IMG/VR virus record: IMGVR_UViG_2541047873_000006
Length of the DNA stretch: 37,458 nt
From: a virus
Lineage: Duplodnaviria; Heunggongvirae; Uroviricota; Caudoviricetes
Direction: 5' to 3' (one strand)
Shown: positions 1-36,297 of the stretch, one piece after another
Layout: each line of letters opens with the position of its first letter
Position numbering within the stretch: position 1 is the stretch's first letter
Notes under the pieces: generated by a model
What the model was told of the DNA's origin: nothing
The model's database searches: none
Seen by the model: only the letters and a program-made list of their open reading frames with translations
Program-made: the position numbers and the translations under genes

Positions 1-1005
1 TTAATCCCCCGTGGACACTGCGTGGACACTCACGCCACCTTTCAGCGGATTAAGGGCCACCGCATCCTGCAGGTAATCCGGTGCAAAATGTGCATATGCC
101 ATTGTTTGCTGAATGGTTGCGTGGCCAAGAATCTTCTGAAGCGCAATAATGTTTCCTCCGTTCATCACAAAATGGCTGGCGAACGTATGCCGCAGCACAT
201 GTGCAGCCTGGCCTTTTGGCAAATCGGGCTTAACTCTTTTCAGCGCCAAGCAGAATTCCCGGTACTTCACCTCAAACAAGCCGCCTGTTTCTCTGGTTTT
301 GATCGCCTCACAAACTGCCTGCGAAATTGGCACTGTTCTCTTTCGGCCATTTTTGGTTTCAAGAAACGTTACACGGTTATGAACTATCTGTTCACCACGA
401 AGCTTACAGGCTTCACTCCAGCGCGCCCCCGTGCTTAAACACAAAAGCGCAACACGCCAGTAATCGCCCTCCAGTGTATCGAGCAATAACGCCACTTCCT
501 TCTGGGACAGGAAAGCCATTTCTCGTGGAGATACATAAAGAATAGAAATTCCCCTTACCGGATGTTCTGCATCCCAGAGGCCTATTTTCTTCAGTACGGT
601 AAACATTCCGGATAACCGATTCATGTATCTGTTAGCAGATGACGGTTTCAATCCATCAGCTATCTTTTGAGAACGCCACGCGATAATTTTTAGCTTATCA
701 AGATCCACAGCCTGCATATCAGCGCCAAGCTCATTGATTATGTTGCGCAGTTGTTTTCGGTCTTCTTCCGCCTTACGCCTGTGCTGGCCGTGATACATCC
801 ACCACAACTCAAGCAAATCATTTAGCGTTCGACGATCACGGTAGCCCTGTATATATTCCCGCTTTTCAGCGTTCGCCATGATGTAGCGTTCAGTGGCCAC
901 CGCTACCGATTTTTTGTCAAATACCTTACGCACGCGCTTTCCCTTGCGTCCGTTCGGCCTGATGTCCAGCAAATAACGACCATCTTCGAGCTTCTTAATC
1001 GACAT
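1..1005 (-). CDS. int: Tyrosine integrase (P2 Int-like), 334 aa
   Basis: Track ORF 1..1020 minus; first ATG (MSIKK...) at 1005-1003 with GGAGGG Shine-Dalgarno 8 nt upstream; C-terminal HxxR (VLRHTFASH) and tyrosine (MAYAHF) motifs typical of tyrosine recombinases; sits beside the C repressor as in P2. Confidence 0.9.
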   Translation of the reverse strand: MSIKKLEDGRYLLDIRPNGRKGKRVRKVFDKKSVAVATERYIMANAEKREYIQGYRDRRTLNDLLELWWMYHGQHRRKAEEDRKQLRNIINELGADMQAVDLDKLKIIAWRSQKIADGLKPSSANRYMNRLSGMFTVLKKIGLWDAEHPVRGISILYVSPREMAFLSQKEVALLLDTLEGDYWRVALLCLSTGARWSEACKLRGEQIVHNRVTFLETKNGRKRTVPISQAVCEAIKTRETGGLFEVKYREFCLALKRVKPDLPKGQAAHVLRHTFASHFVMNGGNIIALQKILGHATIQQTMAYAHFAPDYLQDAVALNPLKGGVSVHAVSTGD

Positions 1006-1101
1006 TGCGAAGCCCTCCAATGAACCGCTCTACAATTTCTCCAGCCTCTTTCCAGCAATAATCAGACCAGACAAAAAGCAGGTCTAACCAGTTTTCTGGC
1101 C

Positions 1102-1422
1102 TCAGCGGGATAATTTTTGGATTGTTTCGGTTGAAACACGATCTCCCTCCGAATTGCAGGAACCATCAAGAGAGAGAGCCGGAGAAATTTGCCCAACCTC
1201 CGGCATCGTTTCATCTGTTGATAACCAATAAGCATATTTCTTAAATTTAGGGTGTTTCGTAACCTTAAGTAAGGCACCCTCTGTTACTTGCTTCCCCCTC
1301 ACCTCATAGTTAGTTACCGTCCCATAAGGCAGCCCAACACAATCCGCAAACTCCTGGCGGGTCATACCTTCTGCTTCACGAATCAGGCGAAATTTTTCAC
1401 CCATGCTTGACAAAGATGCCAT
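1102..1422 (-). CDS. C: Immunity repressor C (P2 C-like), about 106 aa
   Basis: Track ORF 1102..1476 minus; start chosen at MASLSS (ATG 1422-1420) with GGAGGA 10 nt upstream; EKFRLIREAEGMTRQEFADCVGLPYGTVTNYE aligns with the recalled P2 C helix-turn-helix region; divergent from cox. Confidence 0.8.
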   Translation of the reverse strand: MASLSSMGEKFRLIREAEGMTRQEFADCVGLPYGTVTNYEVRGKQVTEGALLKVTKHPKFKKYAYWLSTDETMPEVGQISPALSLDGSCNSEGDRVSTETIQKLSR

Positions 1423-1535
1423 ATCGGGCATATCCTCCATCGCAACATGCCACATCGGGCACAAACATAAAAACACTCAAATAAGCCGATATAAGCCATT
1501 TTGAGCCATTCGAACGAATTAGGGAGATTACCACA
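1416..1535. promoter_or_regulatory. Lysis/lysogeny switch region between C and cox (expected Pe/Pc promoters and operators)
   Basis: Divergent C/cox arrangement as in P2; imperfect 15-bp direct repeat ATGCCAYATCGGGCA at about 1416-1430 and 1447-1461; tandem ATAAGCC at 1481-1487 and 1491-1497; TTGAGC hexamer at 1501-1506. Promoter assignment is by analogy only. Confidence 0.45.
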
Positions 1536-1823
1536 ATGAGCGAATCAGAGCTTGGGGGCTTCATTCAGGTAGCACCATATCCACTTGAAGCGGTGCCATA
1601 TCAACTATTCGCCAAGATGATCGGCCGCAAGGAATCCACAGTCAGAACCATGATTGACGCAGCAAAGCTACCGACAATTGACTTTGTGAAACCAGGTTCA
1701 GTAAAGACGCGTGCATCAGAAAACTGGGTATATCTGCCAGCATTTAACGAAGGCATGCGCAAAGCGTTTTTTGAGCAACCGAAAGAACGCCGCGATGCAT
1801 GGTTGTTGTGGCTGGGGCTTTAG
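1536..1823 (+). CDS. cox: Cox-like excisionase / early repressor of Pc, 95 aa
   Basis: Track ORF; GGGAGA Shine-Dalgarno; VPYQLFAKMIGRKESTVRTMIDAAKLPTIDF...WVYLPAFNEG...WLLWLGL matches the recalled P2 Cox (IPYQEFAKLIG...WVYLPAWNNG...WLMWLGL). Confidence 0.85.
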   Translation: MSESELGGFIQVAPYPLEAVPYQLFAKMIGRKESTVRTMIDAAKLPTIDFVKPGSVKTRASENWVYLPAFNEGMRKAFFEQPKERRDAWLLWLGL

Positions 1824-1829
1824 TCATAA

Positions 1830-2036
1830 ATGACCAGCCATATCATCAGCGCCATTCTGACCCTTGTTTTTATTGAGACAGGCGTAATAGCGATCTATTT
1901 GTTTCGTAAGTTAACGGGACATGAAGAACGCTTTATTGAACTCAGCATTGAATATATCGCCGCTTATACCAAAGGGCTTTTCCCGGCAGCTATTGGGGCG
2001 ATGTTTATAGCGTTTGTTATCTGGTTTATCGGGTGA
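1830..2036 (+). CDS. Hypothetical small membrane protein (68 aa), early operon
   Basis: Track ORF directly after cox; two hydrophobic stretches; position corresponds to P2 orf78 but no similarity claimed. Confidence 0.5.
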   Translation: MTSHIISAILTLVFIETGVIAIYLFRKLTGHEERFIELSIEYIAAYTKGLFPAAIGAMFIAFVIWFIG

Positions 2037-2288
2037 GAAACCTGATAAACCACAACTACTGCAATGAGGGTAATTATGTGTGGCATGGACAAATTGGACC
2101 TTATGTTAATTGTAATACTATCAATTAACTTCGGTTACCTCTTAAGCGGCGTAATTCTCATGTGCGGAGGCAAACGAAAATGAACCAGCAGTCCGCACAA
2201 CGTGAAAACAATGCGATGCGATTTAATCGCAAATATTTTGAGTTCGGCCGCTATGCCGGAATAATTAAATCTGTACAGAGTCTTTAAC

Positions 2289-2630
2289 ATGAAACAGCAA
2301 CGTAATTCACGCTTTCGTAATGGTGCTGAACGTCACGCTAACCGTTTCGCTACCAGTGCATCACGCAGCAACATCCGCTACAGCCTGAGTGATACACACG
2401 CAACGCCGGATGGCTACCCAGTAAAACAAATCGGCGAGCATGCCTGGCTGATTGAGAAAGCTGGAATCGTGGTCCACAAATGCCCACGCAATCCGTTTAC
2501 TGGAAACCGCATTTTTGCTCTAAGCAGCGGCGAAAATCAGTTCGGGCAGGATTTCACATTATACGAAGCACTACGCACGGTTGATCGTCTGCTTCGCGGA
2601 CAAAGTTTTATTAAACAGGCTGATTTATAA
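2289..2630 (+). CDS. Hypothetical early-operon protein (113 aa)
   Basis: Track ORF co-oriented with cox; no family recognised. Confidence 0.5.
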   Translation: MKQQRNSRFRNGAERHANRFATSASRSNIRYSLSDTHATPDGYPVKQIGEHAWLIEKAGIVVHKCPRNPFTGNRIFALSSGENQFGQDFTLYEALRTVDRLLRGQSFIKQADL

Positions 2631-2640
2631 CAGGTGCTTT

Positions 2641-2928
2641 ATGACCAAAGACCATGCACAAGGTGTATTTATCCGTTTTATTGATTTTCGCGGTGAACTG
2701 TTATTACGCGCATCCGCTATTGATGGAGTGGCTCCGGCGGGTAAAAACGGAGCCGACGAAGCCACTTACGTTTATCTGAACGGCACGCGACTGCTTGTGG
2801 AACTTCCGTACCAGACCGTACGAGAAATCATTAGCAAAGCTGAAAAAGCGCGCCAGGCTAATGGCAATGAACCCTATATCGAAATTATTTGCATGGATTC
2901 AGAAGCTGAAATTCAGAAAGCAGATTAA
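2641..2928 (+). CDS. Hypothetical early-operon protein (about 95 aa)
   Basis: Track ORF 2581..2928; start moved to ATG 2641 (MTKDHAQ...) with AGGTG upstream so it does not overlap the preceding ORF. Confidence 0.5.
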   Translation: MTKDHAQGVFIRFIDFRGELLLRASAIDGVAPAGKNGADEATYVYLNGTRLLVELPYQTVREIISKAEKARQANGNEPYIEIICMDSEAEIQKAD

Positions 2929-2939
2929 AGGGTGTTGCA

Positions 2940-3182: not shown

Positions 3183-3385
3183 GTATATTTATCTCATGGC
3201 TTGTTCTGATTATTTCGGTGGCCTGCGCCATTGGGATTATGCGAATTATTAATTCAGTGAAAAAGATCGAGCGTTTTTTCTCTGATGAATAACGATACAA
3301 ATAAAACATCAAATCAAATAAGAAAACGTGAAAACCATCCGTATTAACGGAGGTATTCGCACACGCAAATAACGGAGATACAAAA

Positions 3386-3796: not shown

Positions 3797-3819
3797 GGTT
3801 ACTGGACAAAGGGGGTGCA

Positions 3820-4582: not shown

Positions 4583-4673
4583 GAAACCAGAACATGCACA
4601 CACAAAAAAACCGCTTGCCATGCCGCAATCAGTCAGGTTACATTTCCGCTGCACCTCATAAAACGGGTGCCGG

Positions 4674-4897
4674 GATTCTCAACCCGATACAGAGCAAAGC
4701 GCATAACCGCGCCAGCGGTTTTTTTGTGCGTACTGTATTGCCACGTCTTTTTCGCGTCAGAATTATGGCGGGGCGTACGGGGCCGACTTCGGTCGGGCCG
4801 GATTCTTTGCTCTCCGGTGTTGAGAACCCTGTACGTCTCGCCACCCCGAGATTCTCAACTCTGGATGGTGAGCTATTTCTATCACCGAGCAAAGAGG
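4674..4897 (+). other. Structured, repeat-containing leader/intergenic element (candidate cis-regulatory RNA or small RNA)
   Basis: Motif pair TTCTCAAC...GAGCAAAG at about 4676-4699 and 4853-4893, with its exact inverse CTTTGCTC...GTTGAGAA at about 4805-4826; a cUUCGg tetraloop hairpin at about 4779-4800; the third copy overlaps the AAAGAGG ribosome-binding site of the 70-aa ORF. Confidence 0.35.
4704..4727 (+). terminator. Candidate intrinsic terminator or attenuator inside the early operon
   Basis: AACCGC-GCCA-GCGGTT stem-loop followed by a run of seven T. Confidence 0.4.
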
Positions 4898-4904
4898 CCA
4901 CACC

Positions 4905-5117
4905 ATGGCAAACCGCAAACAACAGCGCGCATACGCTGCGCGTCGTCACATCCAGACTGAAATCAACCGTAGACTTTTCCGCGCATCACGCGTCGCGCAA
5001 ATCATGCACATCAATATGCTGCATGAGCGCAGCCACGCGCTATCGAACATCTATTCCGCCTCTGTTTTCAGCTATCTGGCGGATGATCTGCGCGAGCTGC
5101 AACAACTCTTCCAGTAG
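4905..5117 (+). CDS. Hypothetical basic protein (70 aa)
   Basis: Track ORF with AAAGAGG 8 nt upstream; Arg/Lys-rich N-terminus. Confidence 0.45.
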   Translation: MANRKQQRAYAARRHIQTEINRRLFRASRVAQIMHINMLHERSHALSNIYSASVFSYLADDLRELQQLFQ

Positions 5118-5207
5118 CAAAACAAACTCCATTAATTCCTGTTCCGGGCCTTTCCTGCACCTTGCGGCGGGAGGCCTTCGCACATCTGTAGTAAAGAGAA
5201 TTGCAGC

Positions 5208-5597
5208 ATGATTGACGCTCATGACTTCACAAGATGGGTGCGCACACAGGACACCCGTCTGGCTCCCGTTCTTCAGGGATTATTTGATCTCTACATCCGT
5301 GGTCGTGACAACAGAGCACGCACCACAAAACCAGAGAATGCAGACACCCTTTATTTCACAGTAGACGACTGCTACCGCGTGGACTTCACACCACACGGGC
5401 TGGCGTTGCACTGCCTGACACCACACGGAGAATCACTGCTGGCGTATTACGACTCCCCGGCCTCCGTATTTGCGGCAATGCTGGCGCATCGCACTGCTGG
5501 CGGGTGTGCCTCGCTGAGTGAATACACCGCTGAATTTAACCGCCTTTCTGCCCTCTTCTCGCAGGAGTGGCAGCGCGTGACGGGATACCAGCCATGA
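5208..5597 (+). CDS. Hypothetical protein (129 aa) immediately upstream of A
   Basis: Track ORF; its TGA stop overlaps the ATG of gene A (ATGA). Confidence 0.55.
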   Translation: MIDAHDFTRWVRTQDTRLAPVLQGLFDLYIRGRDNRARTTKPENADTLYFTVDDCYRVDFTPHGLALHCLTPHGESLLAYYDSPASVFAAMLAHRTAGGCASLSEYTAEFNRLSALFSQEWQRVTGYQP

Positions 5598-8434
5598 GTG
5601 AGTTTGCATGGAGCTGGAATGAACCACGGCCAGCCATTGATCCGGCCAGATTTACGGAGCACAGGCAGGAAACTGAAACCGACCTGCAACGCGCCATCCG
5701 TTACTACCTTGAGGCGGACAAAAAGGCCCGGGAAGAACAGGAAGCGAAGGAGGAAGCCTTTTTCGCACAATCCGCCATGGGTAAAAAACTCATGGCATCC
5801 CTTGAGGAAGCCGGACAGCGTGAAAAGCTGGCACAGAGCATCATCAGTAAGCGCCGGGCAACAGAACAAGACCCGGTGGCCCGTGCCTTTGCCACACTGA
5901 AGGCGCTTCCCGTTTATCTGCGAGAACCTCTGAGCCGCCACCTCTCTTTCCTGCGCAAGAAGCAGGAAGCCGATCGTCAGAAAGGCAAAAAGAGCTGGCA
6001 GGCGGAACGCTATGCACGCGGAACCCTGCGCAAAATATTCGAACGTCTGGACCGCACCGACAGCCGCTGGCTGACACCGGGTTATCGCTCCCTTGCCGGA
6101 CGCGAACGCCTGGACGATTTGCTTTACCTGCCGCAGCTCAACAAACACCAGATACAGACGCTGGCCACCATGACGGCGGCGATGTTCAGCAGCACCTTCG
6201 AAAAACTCTGCGATGGCTTTGGCGCGACTGATGGCGAACTGACCATGGATGTAACGCTGAAGGCGTATCAGATGCTGGCCCGCATGGCGTTACACCTGCA
6301 CGCCATGCCTCCACATTATGACGCACTGACAACAGACAAAGACCGGAGGAACGAACCGGACACGGAGCTGCTGCCGGGCGCAATCCTTCGCCTGACCTGT
6401 GCGGAATGGTGGAAACGCAAACTGTGGCTGTTACGTTGCGAGTGGAGAGAAGAACAACTCCGCGCCGCCTGTCTGGTTTCCAGAAAAACATCACCCTATC
6501 TGAGCCAGGACGCGTTAAGCGAGTTTCGCGCACAGCGCGAGAAAACACGCGATTTCCTGAAAAGTTTTATGCTGGAAAACGAAGACGGGTTCACGATTGA
6601 TCTCGAAACAGTGTATTACGCGGGAGTAAGTAACCCGGTTCACCGTAAGGCAGAAATGATGGCCACCATGAAGGGGCTGGAACTTCTGGCCGAAGCCCGT
6701 GGCGACAAAGCGGTGTTTCTGACTGTCACCTGCCCGTCAAAATACCACGCCACAACAGAGAACGGTCATCCGAATCCCAAATGGAACGGGGCCACCATGC
6801 GCGACTCCAGCGATTACCTGGTTAACACGTTTTTTGCGGCGGTCCGCAAGAAACTGAACCGCGACGGCCTGCGCTGGTATGGCATCCGCACGGTGGAGCC
6901 TCACCATGACGGCACCGTGCACTGGCATATGATGGTCTTTGCTCATCCGGAAGAAATCGACACCATTGTGTCCCACACCCGCGATATTGCCATTCAGGAA
7001 GATCGTCACGAGCTGGGTGATGATATTACCCCACGCTTTAAGGCGGAGTACGTCGACGGCTCAAAAGGTACGCCAACCAGCTACATCGCCACCTACATCG
7101 GAAAGAACCTGGACAGCCGCGCCGTGGATGGCATCGACCCGAAAACGGGCAAGCCACGCGTTGACCACGAAACCGGAAAATCAATGGCCGAGAGCGTGGA
7201 ACGCGCCATCGGCTGGGCGCGCCTTCACCGTGTCCGCCAGTTCCAGTTCTTTGGTATCCCCTCCCGTCAGGTGTGGCGTGAACTCCGCCGCCTTGCCAGC
7301 CAGATGGCACGCAACCCGGAAGGCCCGCAACGGCTGAAGGATGACGCAATGGATGCGGTACTCGCTGCCGCTGATGCCGGATGTTTTGCCACCTACATAG
7401 AGAAACAGGGCGGCGTACTTGTTCCACGCAAAGACTACCTGATTCGCACCGCCTACGACCTCGCAGATGAGCTGAACGATTACGGCGAACAGAGTGTACA
7501 GATTTACGGGATCTGGTCGCCGCTCATCGGGGAATCCTCCCGTGTGTGCACGCATCCGGATAACTGGAAGCTGGTAAGACGTAAACCGGAAGTGGAAGAC
7601 AGCGCCCGCGAAAATGGTTTTGACCTTCAGGGCGGCCCTGCCGCCCCTTGGACTCGTGGCAATAACTGTCCCCGTGTACAGGAAACGGACAACAACGGGA
7701 CAGAACAGCCGGAAGAACGGCCAGCACCGTGGCCGCAGCTTCCTGACGGCATTGAAGTGAACGAATGGATGCGCTCACTGAAACGGCACGAACGCCGGGC
7801 GCTGATGCGTTCGCTTCGTGACAAACAGGCAAAAAACAGCAGTGATGAAATGCAGAGCTGGACACAGAGCCGCAAACAGCAGCGGCCTTTGCCTGATAAC
7901 CACGAATTACTCGCTAGAGAATGGCGGGAGTCTGCTGAATCTCTCGGCCTGCATATCGGTGAACAACAAATGCAGCACCTGTTACGGGGCGGCAGTCTGT
8001 ACGTTGACGGCAGCATCATTGCACCGCAGGGATTTGAAATTGTACGCAAACCGGATACCCGCCCGGACAGCCGAATCACGCAGCTCTGGCAACGCCTGAG
8101 CCGTAATCACGGCGTAAGCAGCACGGAGATCCGCCATAACCCGGTCGCCAGCTATCTGGAACAGCTGGGGGCATCAGACCCTGAAGCCGCCGCACGCCTG
8201 GCATCCACACTTCAGCAGGACCAGAACACCATGAAAACACCCGTTACCGTGCTTTCTGACATGCTGCGCGCCATCCGCGACGCAGAGCACGCACAGAGAA
8301 TCAGTGAAACCACTGAACGCGCCCGCCGCAAAGCAGACCTGCTGCGGGGTGGCCTGACCAGTGGAAACAAAAAACAGACAGAAACGGGATTCACAAATCC
8401 CGTAAATGAGCAAAAAACGCGCCGCGATATATGA
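5594..8434 (+). CDS. A: Rolling-circle replication initiator / replication endonuclease (P2 gpA-like), about 946 aa
   Basis: Track ORF 5567..8434 (GTG); ATG 5594 preferred because of the ATGA coupling. HUH motif in EPHHDGTVHWHMMVF and catalytic tyrosine motif in YIATYIGKN; the first 760 aa are collinear with the recalled P2 A protein. Confidence 0.9.
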   Translation: MSEFAWSWNEPRPAIDPARFTEHRQETETDLQRAIRYYLEADKKAREEQEAKEEAFFAQSAMGKKLMASLEEAGQREKLAQSIISKRRATEQDPVARAFATLKALPVYLREPLSRHLSFLRKKQEADRQKGKKSWQAERYARGTLRKIFERLDRTDSRWLTPGYRSLAGRERLDDLLYLPQLNKHQIQTLATMTAAMFSSTFEKLCDGFGATDGELTMDVTLKAYQMLARMALHLHAMPPHYDALTTDKDRRNEPDTELLPGAILRLTCAEWWKRKLWLLRCEWREEQLRAACLVSRKTSPYLSQDALSEFRAQREKTRDFLKSFMLENEDGFTIDLETVYYAGVSNPVHRKAEMMATMKGLELLAEARGDKAVFLTVTCPSKYHATTENGHPNPKWNGATMRDSSDYLVNTFFAAVRKKLNRDGLRWYGIRTVEPHHDGTVHWHMMVFAHPEEIDTIVSHTRDIAIQEDRHELGDDITPRFKAEYVDGSKGTPTSYIATYIGKNLDSRAVDGIDPKTGKPRVDHETGKSMAESVERAIGWARLHRVRQFQFFGIPSRQVWRELRRLASQMARNPEGPQRLKDDAMDAVLAAADAGCFATYIEKQGGVLVPRKDYLIRTAYDLADELNDYGEQSVQIYGIWSPLIGESSRVCTHPDNWKLVRRKPEVEDSARENGFDLQGGPAAPWTRGNNCPRVQETDNNGTEQPEERPAPWPQLPDGIEVNEWMRSLKRHERRALMRSLRDKQAKNSSDEMQSWTQSRKQQRPLPDNHELLAREWRESAESLGLHIGEQQMQHLLRGGSLYVDGSIIAPQGFEIVRKPDTRPDSRITQLWQRLSRNHGVSSTEIRHNPVASYLEQLGASDPEAAARLASTLQQDQNTMKTPVTVLSDMLRAIRDAEHAQRISETTERARRKADLLRGGLTSGNKKQTETGFTNPVNEQKTRRDI

Positions 8435-8480
8435 AGCGCGCACAAAACAGGCAAAAACGGGATTTCAGAATCCCGTAAAC
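8371..8480. repeat. Two about 38-bp direct repeats, each with an ACGGGATT-N4-AATCCCGT palindrome; candidate parC-like centromere / ParR operator
   Basis: Copies at about 8371-8408 (inside the last codons of A) and about 8443-8480 (30 bp upstream of parM) differ at about 5 positions; located where parC lies in R1-type parMRC loci. Confidence 0.4.
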
Positions 8481-8510
8481 GATTAATTAATCAACATAAG
8501 GAAAAGCGAC

Positions 8511-9470
8511 ATGAAAATTTGTATCGACGACGGCTCCACCAACATCAAGCTGGCATGGACTGAGAACGGCGAACGCCGCAACGCCATCAGCCCGAACAGC
8601 TTCAAGTCGGAATGGTCTGCGCCGTTCGGTGGCACGCAGCCCGCGAACTACATGCTTGATGGCGTGCGCTATGGTTTTGATCCGGTCAGCGATCGCTTTG
8701 TCCAGACGACCGACACGCAATACCAGTACAGCGATGTGAATGTCATTGCCATTCATCACGCGCTGGTCAAATCAGGCATCACGCCACAGGAGGTGGATGT
8801 GGTTGTCACCCTGCCACTGAGCGAGTATTTCGACACAAACGCACAGCCGGACATGGCCAACATCAACCGCAAAAAAGCGAACGTTATGCGCCCGGTGGAG
8901 TACCAGAACGGCGAAGCATTCACTATCCGTAACGTGCGGGTTATGCCTGAATCCATTCCGGCTGGCTTTAAGGCACTGGCTGACATGAGTCCGTTTGAAT
9001 CCCTGCTGATTGTGGATTTAGGCGGAACCACGCTGGATGTGGCAAAGGTTCAGGGGCAACTGGCAGGTATCAGCCAGGTGTTTTGCGATCCACACGTAGG
9101 CGTTTCCCTGATGGCCGATGCCGTGCTGTCGGTGATGGCCGCTAACGGTATGCGTACCAGTCACCACATCGCCAATACCATTATCGAACATCGCCATGAT
9201 GAAGCCTGGTTGCGCCAACACATCCACAATGACGCGCATTACGCCAGCCTGATGGCGGTTATTCGTGAAAAGGAAGAAACACTGAAACAACGCGTGATCC
9301 GCGCGCTGGCGGGTTTTTCGGGTTACGGACGGGTGATGGTTGTCGGTGGCGGGGCGGAGATTGTGGCACCCGCTATCCGCGAAGCCTGCGGAGTTAATGC
9401 GACTTTCATCGCGGACGGGGTGCCACAGTTTGCTCTGGTTAATGGGCTGTACGCAATGGACAAGGAGTAA
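8511..9470 (+). CDS. parM: Actin-like segregation ATPase ParM/StbA family, 319 aa
   Basis: MKICIDDGSTNIKLAW...ISPNSFK...YQYSDVNV...MPESIPAG...LIVDLGGTTLDV...VMVVGGGAE is collinear with the recalled plasmid R1 ParM (MLVFIDDGSTNIKLQW...); AAGGA Shine-Dalgarno. Confidence 0.9.
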   Translation: MKICIDDGSTNIKLAWTENGERRNAISPNSFKSEWSAPFGGTQPANYMLDGVRYGFDPVSDRFVQTTDTQYQYSDVNVIAIHHALVKSGITPQEVDVVVTLPLSEYFDTNAQPDMANINRKKANVMRPVEYQNGEAFTIRNVRVMPESIPAGFKALADMSPFESLLIVDLGGTTLDVAKVQGQLAGISQVFCDPHVGVSLMADAVLSVMAANGMRTSHHIANTIIEHRHDEAWLRQHIHNDAHYASLMAVIREKEETLKQRVIRALAGFSGYGRVMVVGGGAEIVAPAIREACGVNATFIADGVPQFALVNGLYAMDKE

Positions 9471-9474
9471 ACCA

Positions 9475-22414: not shown

Positions 22415-25150
22415 ATGAGCACGAAATTTAAAACCGTTATCACTACTGCCGGAGCCGCAAAGCTGGCTGCCGCCACTGTCCCCGGCGGGAAAAAAGTAAA
22501 CCTGTCTGCAATGGCCGTGGGTGACGGTAATGGCAAATTACCGGTGCCGGATGCCGGTCAGACGAAACTGGTGCATGAGGTCTGGCGTCACGCTCTGAAT
22601 AAAGTCAGTGTGGATAATAAGAATAAAAACTATATTGTGGCTGAACTGGTTGTTCCGCCAGAAGTGGGCGGCTTCTGGATGCGTGAGCTTGGTCTGTATG
22701 ACGATGCCGGAACACTGATTGCGGTATCCAACATGGCAGAAAGCTATAAGCCAGAACTGGCTGAAGGCTCCGGACGTGCGCAGACCTGCCGCATGGTTAT
22801 TATTCTCAGCAACGTGGCGTCCGTTGAGCTGAGTATTGATGCCAGCACAGTGATGGCTACGCAGGATTACGTCGATGACAAAATCGCAGAGCATGAGCAG
22901 TCCCGCCGCCATCCTGACGCCACGCTGACAGAAAAAGGTTTTACTCAGTTAAGCAGTGCAACAAACAGCACCAGTGAAAAGCTGGCGGCAACGCCAAAAG
23001 CGGTCAAGGCTGCGAATGACAACGCAAATTCACGTCTGGCGAAAAATCAGAACGGTGCAGATATCCAGGATAAATCAGCTTTTCTGGACAATGTTGGCGT
23101 TACCAGCCTGACGTTTATGAAAAACAATGGCGAAATGCCGCTTGATGCTGATCTGAATACGTTTGGTCCTGTTAAGGCTTATTCAGGTATCTGGTCTAAA
23201 GCAACATCCACCAACGCAACACTGGAGAAAAATTTCCCGGAAGATAATGCTGTCGGTGTGCTTGAGGTTTTTGCTGCCGGCAATTTTGCAGGTACGCAAC
23301 GCTTTACCACGAGAGACGGCAATGTATACATGCGTAAACTCGCCAATAAGTGGAATGGCACTGATGGTCCGTGGGGCGTATGGCGTCACACTCAATCTGC
23401 TACCCGCCCTTTGAGTACGACTATAGACCTGAATACGCTTGGAGCCGCCGAGCATCTTGGTTTATGGCGTAACAGTAGCTCAGCTATAGCTTCATATGAA
23501 CGCAATTATCCAGAGGAAGGCGGCTTTGCTCAGGGGATGCTTGAGATCCTCGAAGGCGGAAATTATGGAAGAACGCAACGTTATACCACTCGCCGTGGAA
23601 ATATGTACGTCCGCTGCCTTGCGGCAAGCTGGGATGCATCAAATCCGCAGTGGGAACCGTGGTTAAGAGTCGGTCATCAGTCAGAGAGTCGTTATTACGA
23701 CGGGGATTTGAATGATGTGACTTCACCAGGTATTTACAGCGTTACAGGTAAAGCGAGCAACGGTCCAATACTGGATGGAAACGGCGTGACAGTCCTCGGT
23801 ATTCTGGAAGTGTTGAGGCGCTTTGATGGTGTTAACGTATGGCAGCGTTATACAACTGCCGGAACAGGTACAACCCTTAAAGGTCGCACGTTTGAGCGCG
23901 TTTTTACCGGCAGCTCATGGAGCGAATGGCGGGAAGTTTACACATCTTATTCACTTCCCCTGAATCTGGGTATCGGCGGCGCAGTAGCAAAACTATCCAG
24001 TCTGGACTGGCAGACCTACGATTTTGTGCCGGGCAGTCTGATAACCGTTCGGCTTGATAATATGACCAACATTCCCGACGGTATGGACTGGGGCGTCATT
24101 GATGGCAACCTGATAAACATCGCAGTTGGTCCGAGTGATGATTCCGGTACGGGGCGCTCAATGCATGTATGGCGCAGCACTGTAAGTAAAGCGAACTACC
24201 GCTTTTTTATGGTGCGTATTTCAGGAAATCCGGGAAGCCGCACGATCACAGCAAGACGAGTACCAATCATTGACGAAGCCCAGACATGGGGCGCGAAACA
24301 GACATTCAGTGCTGGCCTTTCTGGTGAACTGTCCGGCAATGCGGCGACAGCAACAAAGCTGAAAACAGCCCGTAAAATTAATAACGTTTCGTTTGATGGG
24401 ACATCAGATATTAACCTGACGCCGAAAAATATTGGTGCATTTGCTTCAGGAAAAACAGGAGACACCGTTGCGAATGATAAAGCCGTTGGATGGAACTGGA
24501 GTAGCGGAGCCTATAACGCAAATATTGGTGGGGCATCAACGTTAATTCTTCATTTTAATATCGGTGAAGGAAGTTGCCCCGCCGCCCAGTTCCGCGTTAA
24601 TTATAAGAACGGCGGTATTTTTTATCGTTCTGCTCGTGACGGTTACGGATTCGAGGCTGACTGGTCTGAGTTTTATACCACAACGCGAAAACCTACAGCG
24701 GGAGATGTCGGTGCACTGCCGTTATCTGGTGGTCAATTGAATGGTGCTCTGGGTATAGGAACATCCAGTGCTCTTGGCGGTAATTCGATTGTTTTGGGTG
24801 ATAATGACACGGGCTTTAAACAAAATGGTGATGGTAATCTGGATGTTTATGCTAATAGCGTCCATGTTATGCGCTTTGTCTCCGGAAGCGTTCAAAGTAA
24901 TAAAACCATAAATATTACGGGGCGTGTTAATCCCTCGGATTACGGTAACTTTGATTCCCGTTATGTGAGAGATGTCAGACTTGGCACACGTGTTGTCCAG
25001 GTCATGCAGAAAGGGGTGATGTATGAGAAAGCAGGCCATGTAATTACCGGGCTTGGCATTGTCGGCGAAGTTGATGGCGACGATCCGGCAGTATTCAGAC
25101 CAATACAAAAGTTAATTAACGGAACGTGGTACAACGTGTCACAGGTGTAA
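22415..25150 (+). CDS. H: Tail fibre protein (P2 gpH-like), 911 aa
   Basis: Track ORF; conserved N-terminal block MSTKFKTVITTAGAAKLAAA...WMRELGLYDDAGTLIAVSNMAESYKPELAEGSG as in P2 H; large variable C-terminal part with internal repeats. Confidence 0.85.
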   Translation: MSTKFKTVITTAGAAKLAAATVPGGKKVNLSAMAVGDGNGKLPVPDAGQTKLVHEVWRHALNKVSVDNKNKNYIVAELVVPPEVGGFWMRELGLYDDAGTLIAVSNMAESYKPELAEGSGRAQTCRMVIILSNVASVELSIDASTVMATQDYVDDKIAEHEQSRRHPDATLTEKGFTQLSSATNSTSEKLAATPKAVKAANDNANSRLAKNQNGADIQDKSAFLDNVGVTSLTFMKNNGEMPLDADLNTFGPVKAYSGIWSKATSTNATLEKNFPEDNAVGVLEVFAAGNFAGTQRFTTRDGNVYMRKLANKWNGTDGPWGVWRHTQSATRPLSTTIDLNTLGAAEHLGLWRNSSSAIASYERNYPEEGGFAQGMLEILEGGNYGRTQRYTTRRGNMYVRCLAASWDASNPQWEPWLRVGHQSESRYYDGDLNDVTSPGIYSVTGKASNGPILDGNGVTVLGILEVLRRFDGVNVWQRYTTAGTGTTLKGRTFERVFTGSSWSEWREVYTSYSLPLNLGIGGAVAKLSSLDWQTYDFVPGSLITVRLDNMTNIPDGMDWGVIDGNLINIAVGPSDDSGTGRSMHVWRSTVSKANYRFFMVRISGNPGSRTITARRVPIIDEAQTWGAKQTFSAGLSGELSGNAATATKLKTARKINNVSFDGTSDINLTPKNIGAFASGKTGDTVANDKAVGWNWSSGAYNANIGGASTLILHFNIGEGSCPAAQFRVNYKNGGIFYRSARDGYGFEADWSEFYTTTRKPTAGDVGALPLSGGQLNGALGIGTSSALGGNSIVLGDNDTGFKQNGDGNLDVYANSVHVMRFVSGSVQSNKTINITGRVNPSDYGNFDSRYVRDVRLGTRVVQVMQKGVMYEKAGHVITGLGIVGEVDGDDPAVFRPIQKLINGTWYNVSQV

Positions 25151-29760: not shown

Positions 29761-29814
29761 CAGGAAACTCCTTTCAGTCAGAGGCGACGCACTGCGCCGC
29801 CTGCATATTACTTA

Positions 29815-31668: not shown

Positions 31669-32778
31669 ATGACCGATACCACCATGCAATTGCTCAGTCA
31701 GAGCACAGACCCCGTGAAAATGCCGGATTTTGATATTCTCGCGGAGGGGGAAACACTGTCCGGCGTGGCAGAGCGCCTGATGAGCCTGTCACTGACCGAC
31801 AACCGGGGATTTGAAGCGGACCAGCTCACCATCACGCTGGATGATGCGGATGGTCAGTTGCAGCTACCGCCACGGGGCGCGCGCCTGACGGTTCTCATTG
31901 GCTGGAAAGGAGAACCGCTGACAGAAAAAGGCACTTACATTGTTGATGAAATCGCTCACGAAGGACCGCCGGACAGGCTGACGGTTTCAGCCAGAAGCGC
32001 AGATTTTCGGGATGAATTTAACGTTAAACGTGAGGTGTCCTGGCATGATGTGACCGTTGAGCGCGTGGTATCCGCCATCGCTCATCGGTATGGTCTGAAA
32101 CCGCAAATCAGCGAAATGCTGATGGATATCGAAATCGACCACGCCGACCAGACTGAAGAAAGCGACATGTCCTTCCTTACGCGCATGGCGGAAATGCTGG
32201 GCGCAATCACCACGGTAAAAAGCGGTAATCTGTTATTCATCATGCCCGGCGGTGGCGTGAACGCACAGAGCCAGCCGTTGCCATCGTTCGCCATCACACG
32301 CAGCAGCGGCGATCGCCATCAGTTCCGCATTGCTGACCGCGAGGCGTATACGGGGGTACGCGCTTACTGGCTTGATCTTAATTACGGGAAAAAGAAAAAA
32401 GTCAGCGTGAAACGCCGCAAACCGCCAAAACCCAAAAAGGAGAAAAGCATCAGCCGTGAAGGTGATTATATGGAAGGCGCGGAAGGCAATGTGTTTGTGT
32501 TACGCAAGACTTATCAGAACGAGCAGGCAGCAAGACGCGCAGCGGCGGCAAAGTGGCAGCAGCTACAACGCGGAGCCGCATCATTTTCCATCACGCTGGC
32601 GCGTGGACGTGCAGAACTCTACCCCGAAATGCATGGCACGGTAACAGGATTTAAAAGCGAGATTGATAATCAGGACTGGATTATTGCGAAAGCCGAGCAC
32701 ACCATTGATAACAGCGGCTTTACCACACAGCTTGAGCTTGAGGCAAAAATCCCGGAATGGATAGCAGAAACAGAGTGA
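31669..32778 (+). CDS. D: Tail protein / late control protein D (P2 gpD-like), about 369 aa
   Basis: Track ORF 31537..32778; start at MTDTTMQ (ATG 31669) with GGGAGGG Shine-Dalgarno; size as P2 D. Confidence 0.8.
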   Translation: MTDTTMQLLSQSTDPVKMPDFDILAEGETLSGVAERLMSLSLTDNRGFEADQLTITLDDADGQLQLPPRGARLTVLIGWKGEPLTEKGTYIVDEIAHEGPPDRLTVSARSADFRDEFNVKREVSWHDVTVERVVSAIAHRYGLKPQISEMLMDIEIDHADQTEESDMSFLTRMAEMLGAITTVKSGNLLFIMPGGGVNAQSQPLPSFAITRSSGDRHQFRIADREAYTGVRAYWLDLNYGKKKKVSVKRRKPPKPKKEKSISREGDYMEGAEGNVFVLRKTYQNEQAARRAAAAKWQQLQRGAASFSITLARGRAELYPEMHGTVTGFKSEIDNQDWIIAKAEHTIDNSGFTTQLELEAKIPEWIAETE

Positions 32779-32845
32779 GCAACTTAGACATATTAGCTCA
32801 AACTTAAACTGGCAAGTTTACAGTATAGAATTAAACATAAACGAC

Positions 32846-32876
32846 GGTCCGCTCCGTGTCAGAAGCGGACTTTGTC
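32846..32876 (+). terminator. Candidate terminator after D
   Basis: GTCCGCT...AGCGGAC stem-loop followed by TTTGTC; weak. Confidence 0.3.
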
Positions 32877-32898
32877 ATCCCTATGTAAGGTTGATTGC

Positions 32899-33921
32899 TT
32901 AATACGCATTTAATTTAAATTTGTATTTGCCTTCTATGTAATGGATAAATTCAATTATGCTTTTTTCTATCGCATCTAATATATGAATATATCCATCCCG
33001 ATTTAAGGTCCTATCCAACTCAAAGTGATGAACTATCCCATGTCTATATTGTATGATTTCAGAAATTCGATTCTCAAGAAAATCAACTGATTTTCCAATT
33101 CTTTTTTTCTTATAAAGAATCGCTCTCACATCTATATCCAGCCACTCTTTATATGCTTTGTTTAGGTGGGTTAAGTTTTGAAAAGTGTAATTTCTTGCAA
33201 TAACACTTTCTATTGAAATATTTCCTTTCTCTATCTCAAGCAGAATATCAAAATCAACTTTTTGCTTATACGATGTTCTTTTTGCTATTGCGAAAGGATC
33301 GTACTTTATAAGTATTTGAAAAGCTCTAGAGAAAAAGTATTCAAACATAGCAACCGCAAAAGGTACTAATCCATTATATATAACTCTACTGGGATCCATA
33401 CATTGCATGTAATCAAAGTATTCGGATAAGCCGCCATCTTCCGGTAGGTTTAATTTAATAGAAGGTTCAGGTAAGGCATGTTTAACAGCGGAAATCTCAT
33501 GATGGACATGATTAAATATTGAAGAAATGCCACGACTGATCGGACTACTAGAATCCTTCCATAGAGGAGCGTACCTATTTTTCCCATAATCACCTATAAG
33601 TGTTCCACCAAAAAGACTCCTTGCGCCTTTTAGAACATCATTAAGCATTTTTACATCATGCCAACTAGCGCTATATAAATTACGCACATGCAATGCCCAT
33701 TTATTACCAGATATGTGTAATTCGTCATTTGAAACAGGATATATATCAGCCGAAACTCCATCTGTAGATTTGAAGTCTGTATCATCAAACCAAGAGTAAT
33801 TCAACGTTCCTTGGGGCCATTCCCACAAATGTTTACACCTTTTAAAACCTAAATTTTCAAGGTAATTTTTAAGTTCGTTTCTAGTTGCTTTTTTAGGGTA
33901 CAGCGTTATATCTCTTCCCAT
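32899..33921 (-). CDS. AT-rich cargo gene between D and ogr; 340-aa protein with C-terminal HEPN-like R-x4-H motif (candidate abortive-infection/defence effector)
   Basis: Track ORF; visibly lower GC than the flanking phage genes; opposite strand to D and ogr; motif ...IIQYRHGIVHH... in a predicted helical C-terminal half. Confidence 0.65.
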   Translation of the reverse strand: MGRDITLYPKKATRNELKNYLENLGFKRCKHLWEWPQGTLNYSWFDDTDFKSTDGVSADIYPVSNDELHISGNKWALHVRNLYSASWHDVKMLNDVLKGARSLFGGTLIGDYGKNRYAPLWKDSSSPISRGISSIFNHVHHEISAVKHALPEPSIKLNLPEDGGLSEYFDYMQCMDPSRVIYNGLVPFAVAMFEYFFSRAFQILIKYDPFAIAKRTSYKQKVDFDILLEIEKGNISIESVIARNYTFQNLTHLNKAYKEWLDIDVRAILYKKKRIGKSVDFLENRISEIIQYRHGIVHHFELDRTLNRDGYIHILDAIEKSIIEFIHYIEGKYKFKLNAY

Positions 33922-34112
33922 GCTTTATTCACCTGATATACAATATTTTAAATTTTAACTATTATGAACGTATGAATTTTCACATTGGATGTATGGAAGT
34001 TCAACAACTATTGAAAGTTCAATTTTCACTCTTCGCACAGAGCGAGCTGTTAGTTGGAATTAGGGATCGTACAATCTAGAATAGCGGCAACACCACGTTA
34101 AGGGAGGTCGCT

Positions 34113-34373
34113 ATGTTCCGTTGTCCGCTTTGTGGCGCATCTGCCCGTATCCGCACAAGTCGTCCGGAAAATGATTCAAACACCGTGCGGCAAAAGTATT
34201 ACCAGTGTAACAATCTGGAATGCGGCGTATGCTTCTCAACACTGGAAGCTTTCCATAAATTCACATCGAAACACGCCTCCGGCGTTCACTCTTCAGAAGG
34301 TATCCCGTGGCATGAGCTACCAGCTTCACACAGGGGAAACAATCAGATGAGTTTGCCTTTACCTCAGAATTAA
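34113..34373 (+). CDS. ogr: Late gene activator Ogr/Delta-family zinc-finger protein, 86 aa
   Basis: MFRCPLCGASARIRTSR...YYQCNNLECGVCF matches the recalled P2 Ogr (MFHCPLCQHAAHARTSR...YHQCQNVNCSATF) with the same Cys spacing; GGGAGG Shine-Dalgarno. Confidence 0.8.
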   Translation: MFRCPLCGASARIRTSRPENDSNTVRQKYYQCNNLECGVCFSTLEAFHKFTSKHASGVHSSEGIPWHELPASHRGNNQMSLPLPQN

Positions 34374-34563
34374 CAAGCAGAATTGCCGGAGTAACAAAAA
34401 AGCGATAGATTACGCGCGGGTGCCTTTCGGCTGATGGTCGGAGGGAATACCCGAAGGCCAGATGTGGAAAGGCCCCGGAAAACACTTTTGTTTAACCGAG
34501 GCCCTAACCGTCTACCCTAAGCAAGTGAAAGGTTAGCGCCTCTCCGGAAAAGGAGCAAGTGCT

Positions 34564-34704
34564 ATGTCGCAAAAATCGCTTACAGCCATCACGTTCTGCG
34601 TGACGGTAATCCTCATCATCTGGATGTTGCACGGTTCGCTGTGCGAAATACGGATGAGTTTCTGGGGAGCGGAGTTTGCGGCGTTCTTACAGTGTAAGCA
34701 GTAA
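34564..34704 (+). CDS. Hok/Gef-family type I toxin (46 aa)
   Basis: Not in the ORF track (under 60 aa); ATG 34564 with AAGGAG 8 nt upstream; N-terminal transmembrane helix then ...SLCEIR...EFAAFLQCKQ, matching the Hok family signature (LCEIR...EVAAF). Confidence 0.6.
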   Translation: MSQKSLTAITFCVTVILIIWMLHGSLCEIRMSFWGAEFAAFLQCKQ

Positions 34705-34713
34705 GGAAACCGC

Positions 34714-34735
34714 GACGGGGGAGTAATCCCCCGTC
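34714..34735 (+). other. Perfect stem-loop 3' of the hok-like gene
   Basis: GACGGGGGA-GTAA-TCCCCCGTC; its right arm shares the 11-mer TAATCCCCCGT with window positions 2-12. Confidence 0.5.
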
Positions 34736-34964
34736 AATCGGTTGCCAGGGTAAGGTCGATAAGGCACCCTATCTCACGGCTCTAAATGCAAAAATTCCAT
34801 GAAACTGTGGGATTTTTGCATCACTACTGATACAGATCTGCCCTTCTATATGTCTCACTCTATACCAGCTAATCAATTGACACTTATCAATAAAAAAAAT
34901 CTGATAAAATCAAAATGTTTTGTAACAAATATCAACTCGTATTGATCCAAAGGAGGCGGATTAC

Positions 34965-35297
34965 ATGGCATTAATCAAATGTCCTGAATGCCAGAAAGAG
35001 GTGAGCGATTCAGCATTGTATTGCCCTGCTTGCGGTAAACAAATAAAAAAACTTAAGCGTTCATTTTTTGGAAAGCTCATTAAGTGGATATTTATATTAT
35101 TTAATATTTTTATGATCTATACGCTTTTAGTTGGACTGGGAGGCACTAGTGAAATAATAAATAATGCTACATCCGATGCCGAAAAAGCCGGTGCAGTTAT
35201 TGGTACAGGCTTAGGTTTAATTACCATTGGAAGTTTATGGGTTATTGGCGATATCATTATCGGAATTTTAGTATTTCTTACTAAACCAAAAGGATAA
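34965..35297 (+). CDS. Zinc-ribbon membrane protein (110 aa), AT-rich cargo
   Basis: Track ORF with AAAGGAGG Shine-Dalgarno; CPEC-x12-CPAC ribbon then two hydrophobic helices. Confidence 0.6.
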   Translation: MALIKCPECQKEVSDSALYCPACGKQIKKLKRSFFGKLIKWIFILFNIFMIYTLLVGLGGTSEIINNATSDAEKAGAVIGTGLGLITIGSLWVIGDIIIGILVFLTKPKG

Positions 35298-35301
35298 CAA
35301 A

Positions 35302-36195
35302 ATGAAAAATATAATTTTTTCTATAGGTGCATCATTTATATCAATTAGTGTACTGCCTGTTCACGCAGCAACTGAACATAATAACTTCAATGCAGTACTC
35401 CAGTGCCGAGCAATAGAAAATAATAAAGACAGACTTTCTTGTTACGATAAGTCAATACAACCGACTCGAACGAAAGTTGCTGAAAAATTCGAAAGCAGAG
35501 ATCAATGCCCTGATGAGAAAGATGATGACAGACGTTTATCTTGTTATGATCGTTTTTTTTCTCCAACATTTACTCCATCTGTAAACTCAAAATCTAAAAC
35601 GGAAAAGCCAGTAACAACAGAGGCTCAGCAACCAAATCTTTCTGAGATATCTAAATGCCGAGCAGAAAATGATAAAGAAGCCAGACTAAACTGCTACGAT
35701 AAACTATTCCCACAGGATAAAGCTGTTCAAGCTGAATCAAAATTAGAGAAAGCCACAGATGTAGGAAAATGGCACACATCCATTACTACATCGCCAATTG
35801 ATGATTCGAAAAATGTAATTTTATCGTTAGAAAGTGATGATTATATCAGAACTCCATTTGGAGAAGCGGTTACTCCCACTCTGTTTATAGCTTGCCGAGA
35901 AAAGAAAACCGAAGTATTTCTTAGTTGGGATGTATATTTAGGCCTTGAACAAACCAGCATGCTTTATCGTCTTGATAAACAGAAAGCAGTTGAGCGAAAC
36001 TGGCTAGTATCTACAGATACAAAGGCTGTTTTTTATAAAGGTAATGACATTGATTTCATCCGAAAACTAGCCAACTCAAACAAAATGTATACAAAAATAA
36101 CTCCTTATAATGAGAGCCCTGTAAGTGCAACTTTCAATTTAAACGGCCTGTCAAACGCGCTAAAACCACTTCAAGCTGCTTGTAACTGGAAATAG
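35302..36195 (+). CDS. Secreted protein with three Cys-pair repeats (297 aa), AT-rich cargo
   Basis: Track ORF; signal-peptide-like N-terminus; three repeats of C-x(7-9)-RL-x-CYD-[KR]; starts 5 nt after the previous stop. Confidence 0.65.
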   Translation: MKNIIFSIGASFISISVLPVHAATEHNNFNAVLQCRAIENNKDRLSCYDKSIQPTRTKVAEKFESRDQCPDEKDDDRRLSCYDRFFSPTFTPSVNSKSKTEKPVTTEAQQPNLSEISKCRAENDKEARLNCYDKLFPQDKAVQAESKLEKATDVGKWHTSITTSPIDDSKNVILSLESDDYIRTPFGEAVTPTLFIACREKKTEVFLSWDVYLGLEQTSMLYRLDKQKAVERNWLVSTDTKAVFYKGNDIDFIRKLANSNKMYTKITPYNESPVSATFNLNGLSNALKPLQAACNWK

Positions 36196-36221
36196 CATAA
36201 ATCATGTGGCTTAGCCACAAT

Positions 36222-36266
36222 CACAGATAACACAAAGCCCGTGAAAACGGGCTTTGTGTTATCTGT
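36222..36266 (+). terminator. Long perfect palindrome / terminator-like hairpin after the cargo operon
   Basis: CAGATAACACAAAGCCCG-TGAAAA-CGGGCTTTGTGTTATCTG, an 18-19 bp perfect stem; not followed by a clean T-run. Confidence 0.45.
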
Positions 36267-36276
36267 AACTCGAAAA

Positions 36277-36297
36277 TGTGGTCACTACGTGGACACG
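36277..36297. repeat. Candidate attR core (imperfect copy of sequence at window 10-30)
   Basis: TGTGGTCACTACGTGGACACG versus CGTGGACACTGCGTGGACACT at positions 10-30 (17 of 21 identical); similarity stops on both sides. Confidence 0.3.

Follow-up and report, generated by a model that had tools for sequence, protein, structure and literature searches.

Putative arm-type integrase sites and a separate 20-bp attachment core in pdxB at the ends of a P2-like Escherichia coli prophage

Attachment sites of P2-like and related phages

In phage lambda, the attP of the heterobivalent Int carries arm-type sites that lie far from the core and are bridged to it by DNA bending, with IHF and Xis as accessory proteins. 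The phage studied here follows the same arm/core logic but differs in its arm consensus and in the number and arrangement of its sites, with Cox replacing Xis. The annotated attP of P2 (AF063097) contains, in order, the Int P arm, IHF, the core, Cox and the Int P' arm, and the same order was found here. The arm-site consensus of P2-type integrases is tgTGGaCa, and the residues that discriminate their arm-binding domain are Y, D and R, versus W, E and Y in the 186 type (PMC3448106). For Cox, the cox-box consensus is TTAAA(G/C)NC(A/C) (PMC3936717). The att site of phage PhiSM was determined experimentally in K-12 and lies in the 5' end of pdxB, whose start codon the phage has been proposed to replace (Magaziner 2019, PMC6456863).

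The window, meaning the whole 37,458-nucleotide stretch that was analysed, is a P2-like E. coli prophage (P88/PhiSM-type, genus Xuanwuvirus) inserted beside flk, within the 5' end of pdxB; its features are listed in Table 1. PhiSM (Shae_phiSM, a Citrobacter phage of the genus Xuanwuvirus, OR565851) has the same att site, the published 17-bp PhiSM att ATCCTTGTTGATGAAAA being the reverse complement of the first 17 bp of the 20-bp core TTTTCATCAACAAGGATTTT found here. The attachment core and the pdxB site are thus already published, and nothing about them is new. PhiSM supplies pdxB with the same TTG start and AAGGAG Shine-Dalgarno sequence, its attP is near-identical, almost base for base, to the one reconstructed here, and its Hok, Zn-ribbon and VasI-like cargo is the same, with 96.7% identity at the DNA level. 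It differs in having a DNA invertase and in lacking the AT-rich 340-aa gene that lies between D and ogr here, and in C. rodentium it occupies a traF-like gene, not pdxB. An 8-bp duplication, ACAAGGAT, at the origin of the "circular" PhiSM record falls inside the core; it was regarded as artefactual, the record having been built from prophage ends. Two further relatives are Escherichia phage 500465-2 (NC_049343), which is 99.9% identical over 32800-36361, 340-aa gene included, and PhiR44_2 (PV340564), which lacks that gene, has a 99.4% identical Int, and has a record cut at the same core.

Table 1. Features of the window and the basis of each assignment
Feature	Position	Strand	Evidence
int, P2-type tyrosine integrase, 334 aa	1..1005	-	Pfam Phage_integrase, Int_N; window starts at its stop codon
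int stop codon	1-3	-	
P' arm, two putative Int arm-type sites CGTGGACA	10..30 (8-mers 10-17, 21-28)	+	Consensus; offset of P2 "Int P' arm"
Immunity repressor (C-like, HTH)	1102..1422	-	
cox, excision directionality factor and Pc repressor	1536..1823	+	Pfam Phage_Cox 1.3e-22; 56% identical to P2 Cox
AT-rich 340-aa accessory gene, between D and ogr	32899..33921	-	GC 0.31-0.37
ogr, late-gene activator	34113..34373	+	Pfam Ogr_Delta 5e-14
Hok/Gef-family toxin gene, 46 aa, cargo	34564..34704	+	Pfam HOK_GEF 30.1 bits, cutoff 22
Zinc-ribbon protein, 110 aa, AT-rich module gene 1, cargo	34965..35297	+	Pfam Zn_Ribbon_1; GC about 0.33-0.37
VasI/TagO-like protein, 297 aa, AT-rich module gene 2, cargo	35302..36195	+	Pfam VasI 2.6e-25
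Hairpin, 12-bp stem (ACACAAAGCCCG-TGAAAA-CGGGCTTTGTGT)	36230..36259	+	Aligns with annotated P2 terminator preceding P arm
P arm, two putative Int arm-type sites TGTGGTCA, CGTGGACA	36277..36297 (8-mers 36277-36284, 36288-36295)	+	Aligns with P2 "Int P arm"
Candidate IHF consensus site TATCAATAAATTA	36318..36330	+	Between P arm sites and core
attR core copy TTTTCATCAACAAGGATTTT	36342..36361	+	Empty-site versus lysogen comparison; both junctions of lysogens
Orphaned native pdxB start codon and pdxB-flk intergenic region, host DNA	36362..36462	-	198/200 versus empty site; pdxB annotation
Orphaned native pdxB start codon GTG	36362-36364	-	
flk, host gene	36463..37458	+	

The 21-bp repeats as putative integrase arm sites

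The first-pass annotation had reported a 21-bp imperfect direct repeat, and the repeat is real: the copies at 10-30 (CGTGGACACTGCGTGGACACT) and 36277-36297 (TGTGGTCACTACGTGGACACG) are identical at 17 of 21 positions (4 mismatches), and their flanks are unmatched, as had been stated (0/9 on the left, 4/30 on the right). When both strands of the window were searched, 36277 was the sole match to the 21-mer at five or fewer mismatches, and 0 of 200 block shuffles gave a match with four or fewer. The resemblance between the two 21-mers exceeds chance. A detail absent from the earlier description is that each copy consists of two 8-mers (C/TGTGGA/TCA) 11 bp apart. The sequence GTGGWCAC has six matches in the window versus 1.96 expected, and four of the six fall in the two repeat copies.

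We conclude that the 21-bp repeats are very probably arm-type Int sites, with strand exchange at the separate 20-bp core in pdxB. All four 8-mers (CGTGGACA twice in the left copy, TGTGGTCA and CGTGGACA in the right) match the P2-type consensus at 7 of 8 positions, and their spacing is 11 bp in the P' arm and in the P arm alike. In the reconstructed attP, the two arms flank the core, and each carries a pair of sites on the + strand. The P arm aligns column for column with the annotated P2 "Int P arm" TGTGGTCAATGTGTGGACG, and lies between the hairpin and the IHF site, as in P2. The 8-mers of P2 are nearly the same (TGTGGTCA/TGTGGACG in the P arm, TGTGGACA twice in the P' arm) and share the 11-bp spacing. 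From the first base of the int stop codon to the start of the P' arm there are 9 nt in P2 and 10 nt here, and in both phages the P' arm overlaps the last int codons (SVHTVST in P2, SVHAVST here). Here the P pair is 65 bp from the core, start to start; the corresponding figure for P2 is 59 bp. The P' arm exceeds that of P2 by about 100 bp, with 192 bp versus 89 bp from the end of the core to the P' sites; this greater length is a point against the arm-site explanation. In P2, ogr abuts the P arm directly, whereas 1.9 kb of cargo separates them here.

The integrase itself, whose gene has an annotated length of 1005 nt in identical lysogens, shares 50% identity with P2 Int along its full length. 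Its N-terminus MSIKKLEDGRYLLDIRP aligns with MAIKKLDDGRYEVDIRP of P2; Y11, D14 and R16 are kept, and the residues GRY..DIR are common to both proteins. The N-terminal domain would bind the 8-bp sites, two per arm, with the P' pair forming part of attL and the P pair part of attR. As a heterobivalent tyrosine integrase, Int would carry out strand exchange in TTTTCATCAACAAGGATTTT, apart from the arm sites; DNA bending by IHF, bound between the P sites and the core, would allow Int to bridge arm and core, and Cox would be expected on the long P' arm, directing excision. Judged from sequence and from homology with P2, Int, IHF and Cox probably bind these sequences in this phage.

The IHF consensus WATCAANNNNTTR has just two matches in the window, one of them at 36318, and the candidate site lies inside a block, ATAAATCCTTTTAT.TCAAT, that aligns with the annotated IHF site of P2; ATAAATCCTTTTAT is common to the two phages. 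The IHF motif is short and degenerate, and its assignment draws mainly on the P2 homology. The hairpin upstream of the P arm failed the T-tract rule of a simple terminator scan, and we describe it only as a hairpin located where P2 has its terminator.

Binding of the repeats by Cox, the C repressor or another protein instead of Int is very unlikely. The Cox-protected region of P2 (24399-24472) does abut, and slightly overlaps, the P2 P' arm (24470-24496), but the 8-mer is unlike the cox box (PMC3936717), it is present on both arms whereas P2 Cox is annotated on the P' side only, and it does not occur at the Pe/Pc switch, the region in which Cox and C function. When the 192-bp P' arm was scanned for the P2 cox box, there were four one-mismatch matches versus 0.8 expected (7 of 500 shuffles gave as many), and no match was found in the Pe/Pc region. 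The scan is insensitive, recovering only two matches in the footprinted region of P2 itself, and Cox sites therefore cannot be placed with confidence. An rCCATTT motif is common to the P' arm and the switch region and differs among lysogens.

A resemblance without function, arising by chance or from coding constraint on the Int C-terminus, is scarcely credible. The copies match at only 17 of 21 positions and the left one is inside coding sequence, where, as the first-pass annotation had noted, it encodes the end of Int (..SVHAVST.. of the C-terminal tail). The right copy, however, is non-coding, no shuffle produced such a match, and the corresponding sequences of P2 are annotated as Int binding sites. 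Paired 8-mers with 11-bp spacing were also found at both homologous positions in six other P2-type phages whose Ints show 50-54% identity (P2, fiAA91-ss, 11W, P2_2H4, PhiSM and PhiR44_2), while shuffling gave an expectation of 0.8 such pairs per 37 kb.

Position of the attachment core

The core was located by comparing an unoccupied E. coli site, a 6.1-kb locus, with two lysogens (L002 and L011). The sequence TTTTCATCAACAAGGATTTT occurs once in the empty site, at 2501-2520, where it spans codons 2-8 of pdxB, and once at each junction of the prophage, as a perfect 20-bp repeat exactly where host and phage DNA meet. Core copies were found at 2799-2818 in L002 and at 1299-1318 in L011. The host sequence is continuous across the core, its two flanks being identical to the empty site at 197/200 and 198/200 positions. 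In every sampled unoccupied genome, homology with the window starts at 36342, and a decayed, plasmid-borne phage remnant breaks off where the 17-bp part of the core ends. The attL copy of the core lies outside the window, 183-202 bp to the left of position 1. The core of P2, AAAAAATAAGCCCGTGTAAGGGAGATT, differs from TTTTCATCAACAAGGATTTT, as does the host site.

The 21-mers had been taken for the attL/attR cores of a prophage running from about 10 to 36297. Such a reading fits the imperfect direct repeat, which has one copy close to each end and unrelated flanks, but it is now practically untenable, since the att published for this type of phage is in pdxB, a perfect repeat sits exactly at the junctions, and the empty-site comparison, which had been proposed as the check, refuted it by placing the junctions elsewhere. 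The empty site has no copy of the 21-mer (best match 14/21 in 6.1 kb, far from the junction). Neither copy is at a host/phage junction: 44 bp of phage-only DNA (36298-36341) lie between the right repeat and the core, and 192 bp of phage DNA between the end of the attL core and the left repeat. The PhiSM and PhiR44_2 records contain both segments, which unoccupied genomes lack. The core assignment of the 21-mers is therefore wrong, and the true right end of the prophage is about 45-65 bp further right than had been proposed. In a broader sense, the repeats are still parts of attL and attR, being their P' and P arms and not their cores.

Cargo, pdxB expression and prophage annotation

The hok-like gene and the AT-rich two-gene module are inside the prophage, between ogr and att, as the first-pass annotation had placed them, and they travel with related phage genomes. 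In related records, the counterpart of 34564-34704 is annotated as Hok/Gef or MokW-like; Rfam gave no hok/sok family at the gathering score. The VasI/TagO-like protein has a TIGR03360 match below the cutoff. For the 340-aa protein, Pfam gave a weak, sub-threshold match to HEPN_RiboL-PSP, and no PADLOC or NCBIfam match was obtained; across the four cargo proteins, PADLOC had no match and NCBIfam sub-threshold matches only. From comparison of the genomes, the 340-aa gene is variable cargo, absent from CRE1540, PhiR44_2 and PhiSM.

The pdxB junction of the lysogens reads AAGGAGccttagaTTG, in frame with pdxB, with a phage-supplied TTG as candidate start codon and an AAGGAG Shine-Dalgarno sequence. 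In the attL region, a sigma-70 scan gave a single weak promoter-like site (9/12), which does not exceed the number in shuffles, and a simple scan between int and pdxB found no intrinsic terminator, the only strong hairpin being one without a T tract. We raise the possibility, which we consider doubtful, that the roughly 100 extra bp of the P' arm might re-express pdxB after integration, with transcription by read-through from the C-int operon of the prophage, since the scan showed no terminator on the way. If true, vitamin B6 synthesis of the host would be tied to the lysogenic state, and this regulatory coupling alone would be new.

The significance of these results is mainly for annotation. 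With the boundaries set correctly, the Hok toxin gene and the Zn-ribbon/VasI-like pair are confirmed as phage-carried, and the host pdxB is seen to receive its first codons and its expression signals from the phage. In P2-like prophages, an imperfect repeat close to both ends that overlaps the 3' end of int is a signature of arm sites and is unfit for setting boundaries; the real core can be at a distance of tens to hundreds of bases, and in this case one of its copies is outside the window.

The 21-bp repeat and the phage-host junctions

The window carries CGTGGACACTGCGTGGACACT at 10-30 and TGTGGTCACTACGTGGACACG at 36277-36297, with 17/21 bases identical and unrelated flanks (0/9 identical on the left, 4/30 on the right), as the first-pass annotation had described. 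The minus-strand integrase gene ends, with its stop codon, at the left edge of the window, which places the left copy within the last int codons (encoding ..GVSVHAVSTGD*). No other window position on either strand matched the 21-mer with five or fewer mismatches, 0/200 shuffles gave a match with four or fewer, and the resemblance is not due to chance. Each copy is a tandem pair of GTGGWCAC with an 11-bp period, which had previously gone unremarked.

The two 21-mers had been taken for the attL and attR cores. When 5,426 complete E. coli genomes were searched with window 35900-37458, the flk side was found in every genome and the phage side in only 225; in all sampled unoccupied genomes the alignment started at query position 443 (window 36342). 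A K-12-like empty site (L001) was compared with the right junction of the window and the left junctions of the lysogens CRE1540 (L002) and EcPF14 (L011), the latter being 100% identical and colinear over both window stretches searched (1-1500 and 32700-34200). The single perfect segment common to the empty site and the junctions was TTTTCATCAACAAGGATTTT, and host flanks at occupied and empty sites were 197/200 and 198/200 identical. The comparison thus puts the junctions at TTTTCATCAACAAGGATTTT instead of the 21-mers, and the empty-site check suggested along with the att-core interpretation refutes it. The attL core lies to the left of position 1 and is therefore outside the window. Phage DNA that is missing in the empty site and found in PhiR44_2 and PhiSM separates each repeat copy from its core, by 44 bp on the right and 192 bp on the left. 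The right boundary proposed at about 36297 was approximately correct in place but not as the exact end, which lies at the attR core, past that 44 bp. From attL core start to attR core end, the prophage is 36,563 bp long.

Coordinates of prophage features and of the attachment core
Feature	Location	Strand	Remarks
Integrase gene	1-1005	minus	window begins at its stop codon
isrK Rfam match	4651-4725	plus	62.8 bits
C4 antisense RNA Rfam match	4761-4848	plus	78.5 bits
ParM actin-like segregation gene	8511-9470		StbA_N, 1.8e-82
AT-rich 340-aa gene	32899-33921	minus	GC 0.31-0.37; between tail gene D and ogr
Hok/Gef-family gene	34564-34704
Zinc-ribbon protein gene	34965-35297
VasI/TagO-like gene	35302-36195
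Full IHF consensus TATCAATAAATTA	36318-36330		one of only two in window
Core TTTTCATCAACAAGGATTTT, attR copy	36342-36361		one copy in window
Core TTTTCATCAACAAGGATTTT, attL copy	183-202 bp left of window position 1		one copy at lysogen left junction
Core TTTTCATCAACAAGGATTTT, empty-site copy	L001 2501-2520		one copy in empty site

The attachment site in pdxB

The core falls in pdxB, within codons 2-8; in L001 this gene is on the minus strand, with its GTG start at 2521-2523. Random-primed PCR with sequencing on K-12 lysogens showed that the Citrobacter rodentium phage PhiSM integrates 6 bp inside pdxB, at the 17-bp ATCCTTGTTGATGAAAA (Magaziner et al. 2019, PMC6456863). Read as its reverse complement, this published sequence equals the first 17 bp of the core. 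PhiSM lysogens receive an in-frame TTG after AAGGAG from the phage and retain growth on minimal medium (PMC6456863). The same AAGGAGccttagaTTG, in frame with pdxB, was seen in the lysogens examined here, and the PhiSM attP region is almost base-for-base identical to the attP rebuilt from window 36196-36361 and the phage DNA left of the window. PhiSM is assigned to Xuanwuvirus, the P88-like Peduoviridae; Escherichia phage 500465-2 shares 99.9% identity with window 32800-36361.

On integration, pdxB loses its native start codon and promoter, and the P' arm gives AAGGAG-7 nt-TTG in frame (L011 1299-1345), a replacement start already proposed for PhiSM (PMC6456863). Automatic annotation of the gene differs, with 1158 nt from the phage TTG in CRE1540 and 1113 nt from Met9 in EcPF14. 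The native GTG (window 36362-36364) and seven codons are kept at attR and joined to phage DNA as a 14-codon stub.

Two other records touch on this site. In the 'circular' PhiSM record OR565851.1 (L009), 8 bp of the att core are duplicated at the record's origin (ACAAGGAT ACAAGGAT), most probably an artefact that arose when the record was closed from prophage ends. The 142-kb ETEC plasmid NZ_LR883008.1 (L008 3851-6470) holds the decayed right end of a window-type phage, with a D fragment, ogr, hok, Zn-ribbon, a split VasI-like gene, P arm sites and the IHF block. This remnant ends after TTTTCATCAACAAGGAT, followed by an N-terminally truncated topoisomerase-like gene, and appears to stem from an old insertion into a secondary site with the same 17-bp core.

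Cargo and other genes of the prophage

In P2, ogr and the P arm directly adjoin, whereas 1.9 kb lies between them in the window. The earlier view of the hok-like gene and the AT-rich two-gene module (zinc-ribbon and VasI/TagO-like; GC 0.33-0.39) as phage cargo between ogr and att was borne out, all three genes lying inside the core boundary and being carried by PhiSM, PhiR44_2, 500465-2 and P884B11. In the VasI/TagO-like protein, the Pfam VasI match is confined to residues 118-296. The N-terminal half of the protein contains repeated C-x(9-10)-RL-x-CYD units, two of which form a 47-nt direct repeat (window 35404-35450 and 35656-35702), with a third visible at about 35510-35555.

Only 65 E. coli genomes had the 340-aa gene (coverage of at least 80%), compared with about 225 that have the window-type prophage; CRE1540, PhiR44_2 and PhiSM lacked it. 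The sole match of its product was a sub-threshold HEPN_RiboL-PSP (22.5 bits, cutoff 28.4), with none in PADLOC or NCBIfam; the gene may have an accessory or defence role, so far uncharacterised, and occupy a variable slot.

The isrK and C4 matches, both above gathering score, lie in the early region, and the ORFs overlapping or following them (4594-5211 and 5208-5597) matched no Pfam family. The ParM gene, of plasmid type, is downstream of replication gene A. A 42-nt direct repeat precedes it, in two copies that lie 73 bp apart and each contain a small hairpin (window 8368-8482); together, gene and repeats may form a partition locus or centromere, here in a P2-like phage.

Arm-type sites and the proposed recombination

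Similar repeats occur in P2-type phages, with the consensus tgTGGaCa (Nilsson et al., PMC3448106), to which the four 8-mers here (CGTGGACA, CGTGGACA, TGTGGTCA, CGTGGACA) each match at 7/8 positions. The P2 GenBank record (AF063097) has the order ogr, terminator, Int P arm, IHF, core, Cox, Int P' arm, the last overlapping the int 3' end. The P2 arms, TGTGGTCAaTGTGTGGACG (P) and TGTGGACActgTGTGGACA (P'), have the same 11-bp spacing. The distance between the first base of the int stop codon and the start of the P' arm is 9 nt in P2, as against 10 nt in the window. On the P side, P2 and the window are colinear for a hairpin, the arm pair, the block ATAAATCCTTTTAT.TCAAT, which falls within the annotated P2 IHF site, and the core. 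Pairs spaced by 11 bp, expected by shuffling at about 0.8 per 37 kb, are present at the same two positions in fiAA91-ss, 11W, P2_2H4, PhiSM and PhiR44_2. Int is 50% identical to P2 Int (C-terminal SVHAVST here, SVHTVST in P2), and the two share the N-terminal GRY..DIR residues, proposed discriminators of P2 arm type (2011 paper, PMC3448106). We conclude from these sequence comparisons that the 21-bp repeat represents the P'/P arm-site pair of a heterobivalent integrase, which Int is predicted to bind.

By analogy with P2 and lambda, Int dimers would contact the arm pairs with their N-terminal domains during integration, the core being held by the core-binding and catalytic domains, and IHF at its consensus would bend the P arm. 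Exchange at the core would split attP into attL (pdxB'-core-P' arm-int) and attR (cargo-P arm-IHF-core-'pdxB start-flk). The Cox protein shares 56% identity with its P2 counterpart and would presumably bind the P' arm to direct excision; a scan for Cox sites could not place them. The P' arm, measured between the end of the core and the arm sites, extends over 192 bp, versus 89 bp in P2, and the extra DNA holds the replacement ribosome-binding site and start codon of pdxB.

The 192-nt int-to-pdxB spacer has a predicted fold of -53.6 kcal/mol (z = -3.9). Just downstream of the int stop, on the int/pdxB strand, is a perfect 13-bp stem, GGGCGAUACUGAA / UUCAGUAUUGCCC, with no T tract after it (L011 1440-1474, 26-60 bp left of window position 1), which may mark the 3' end of a transcript, serve in processing or belong to the Cox/Int architecture.

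Both P2-type integrase arm sites and the pdxB attachment site of a PhiSM-type phage are in the literature, and their occurrence in this prophage is ordinary.
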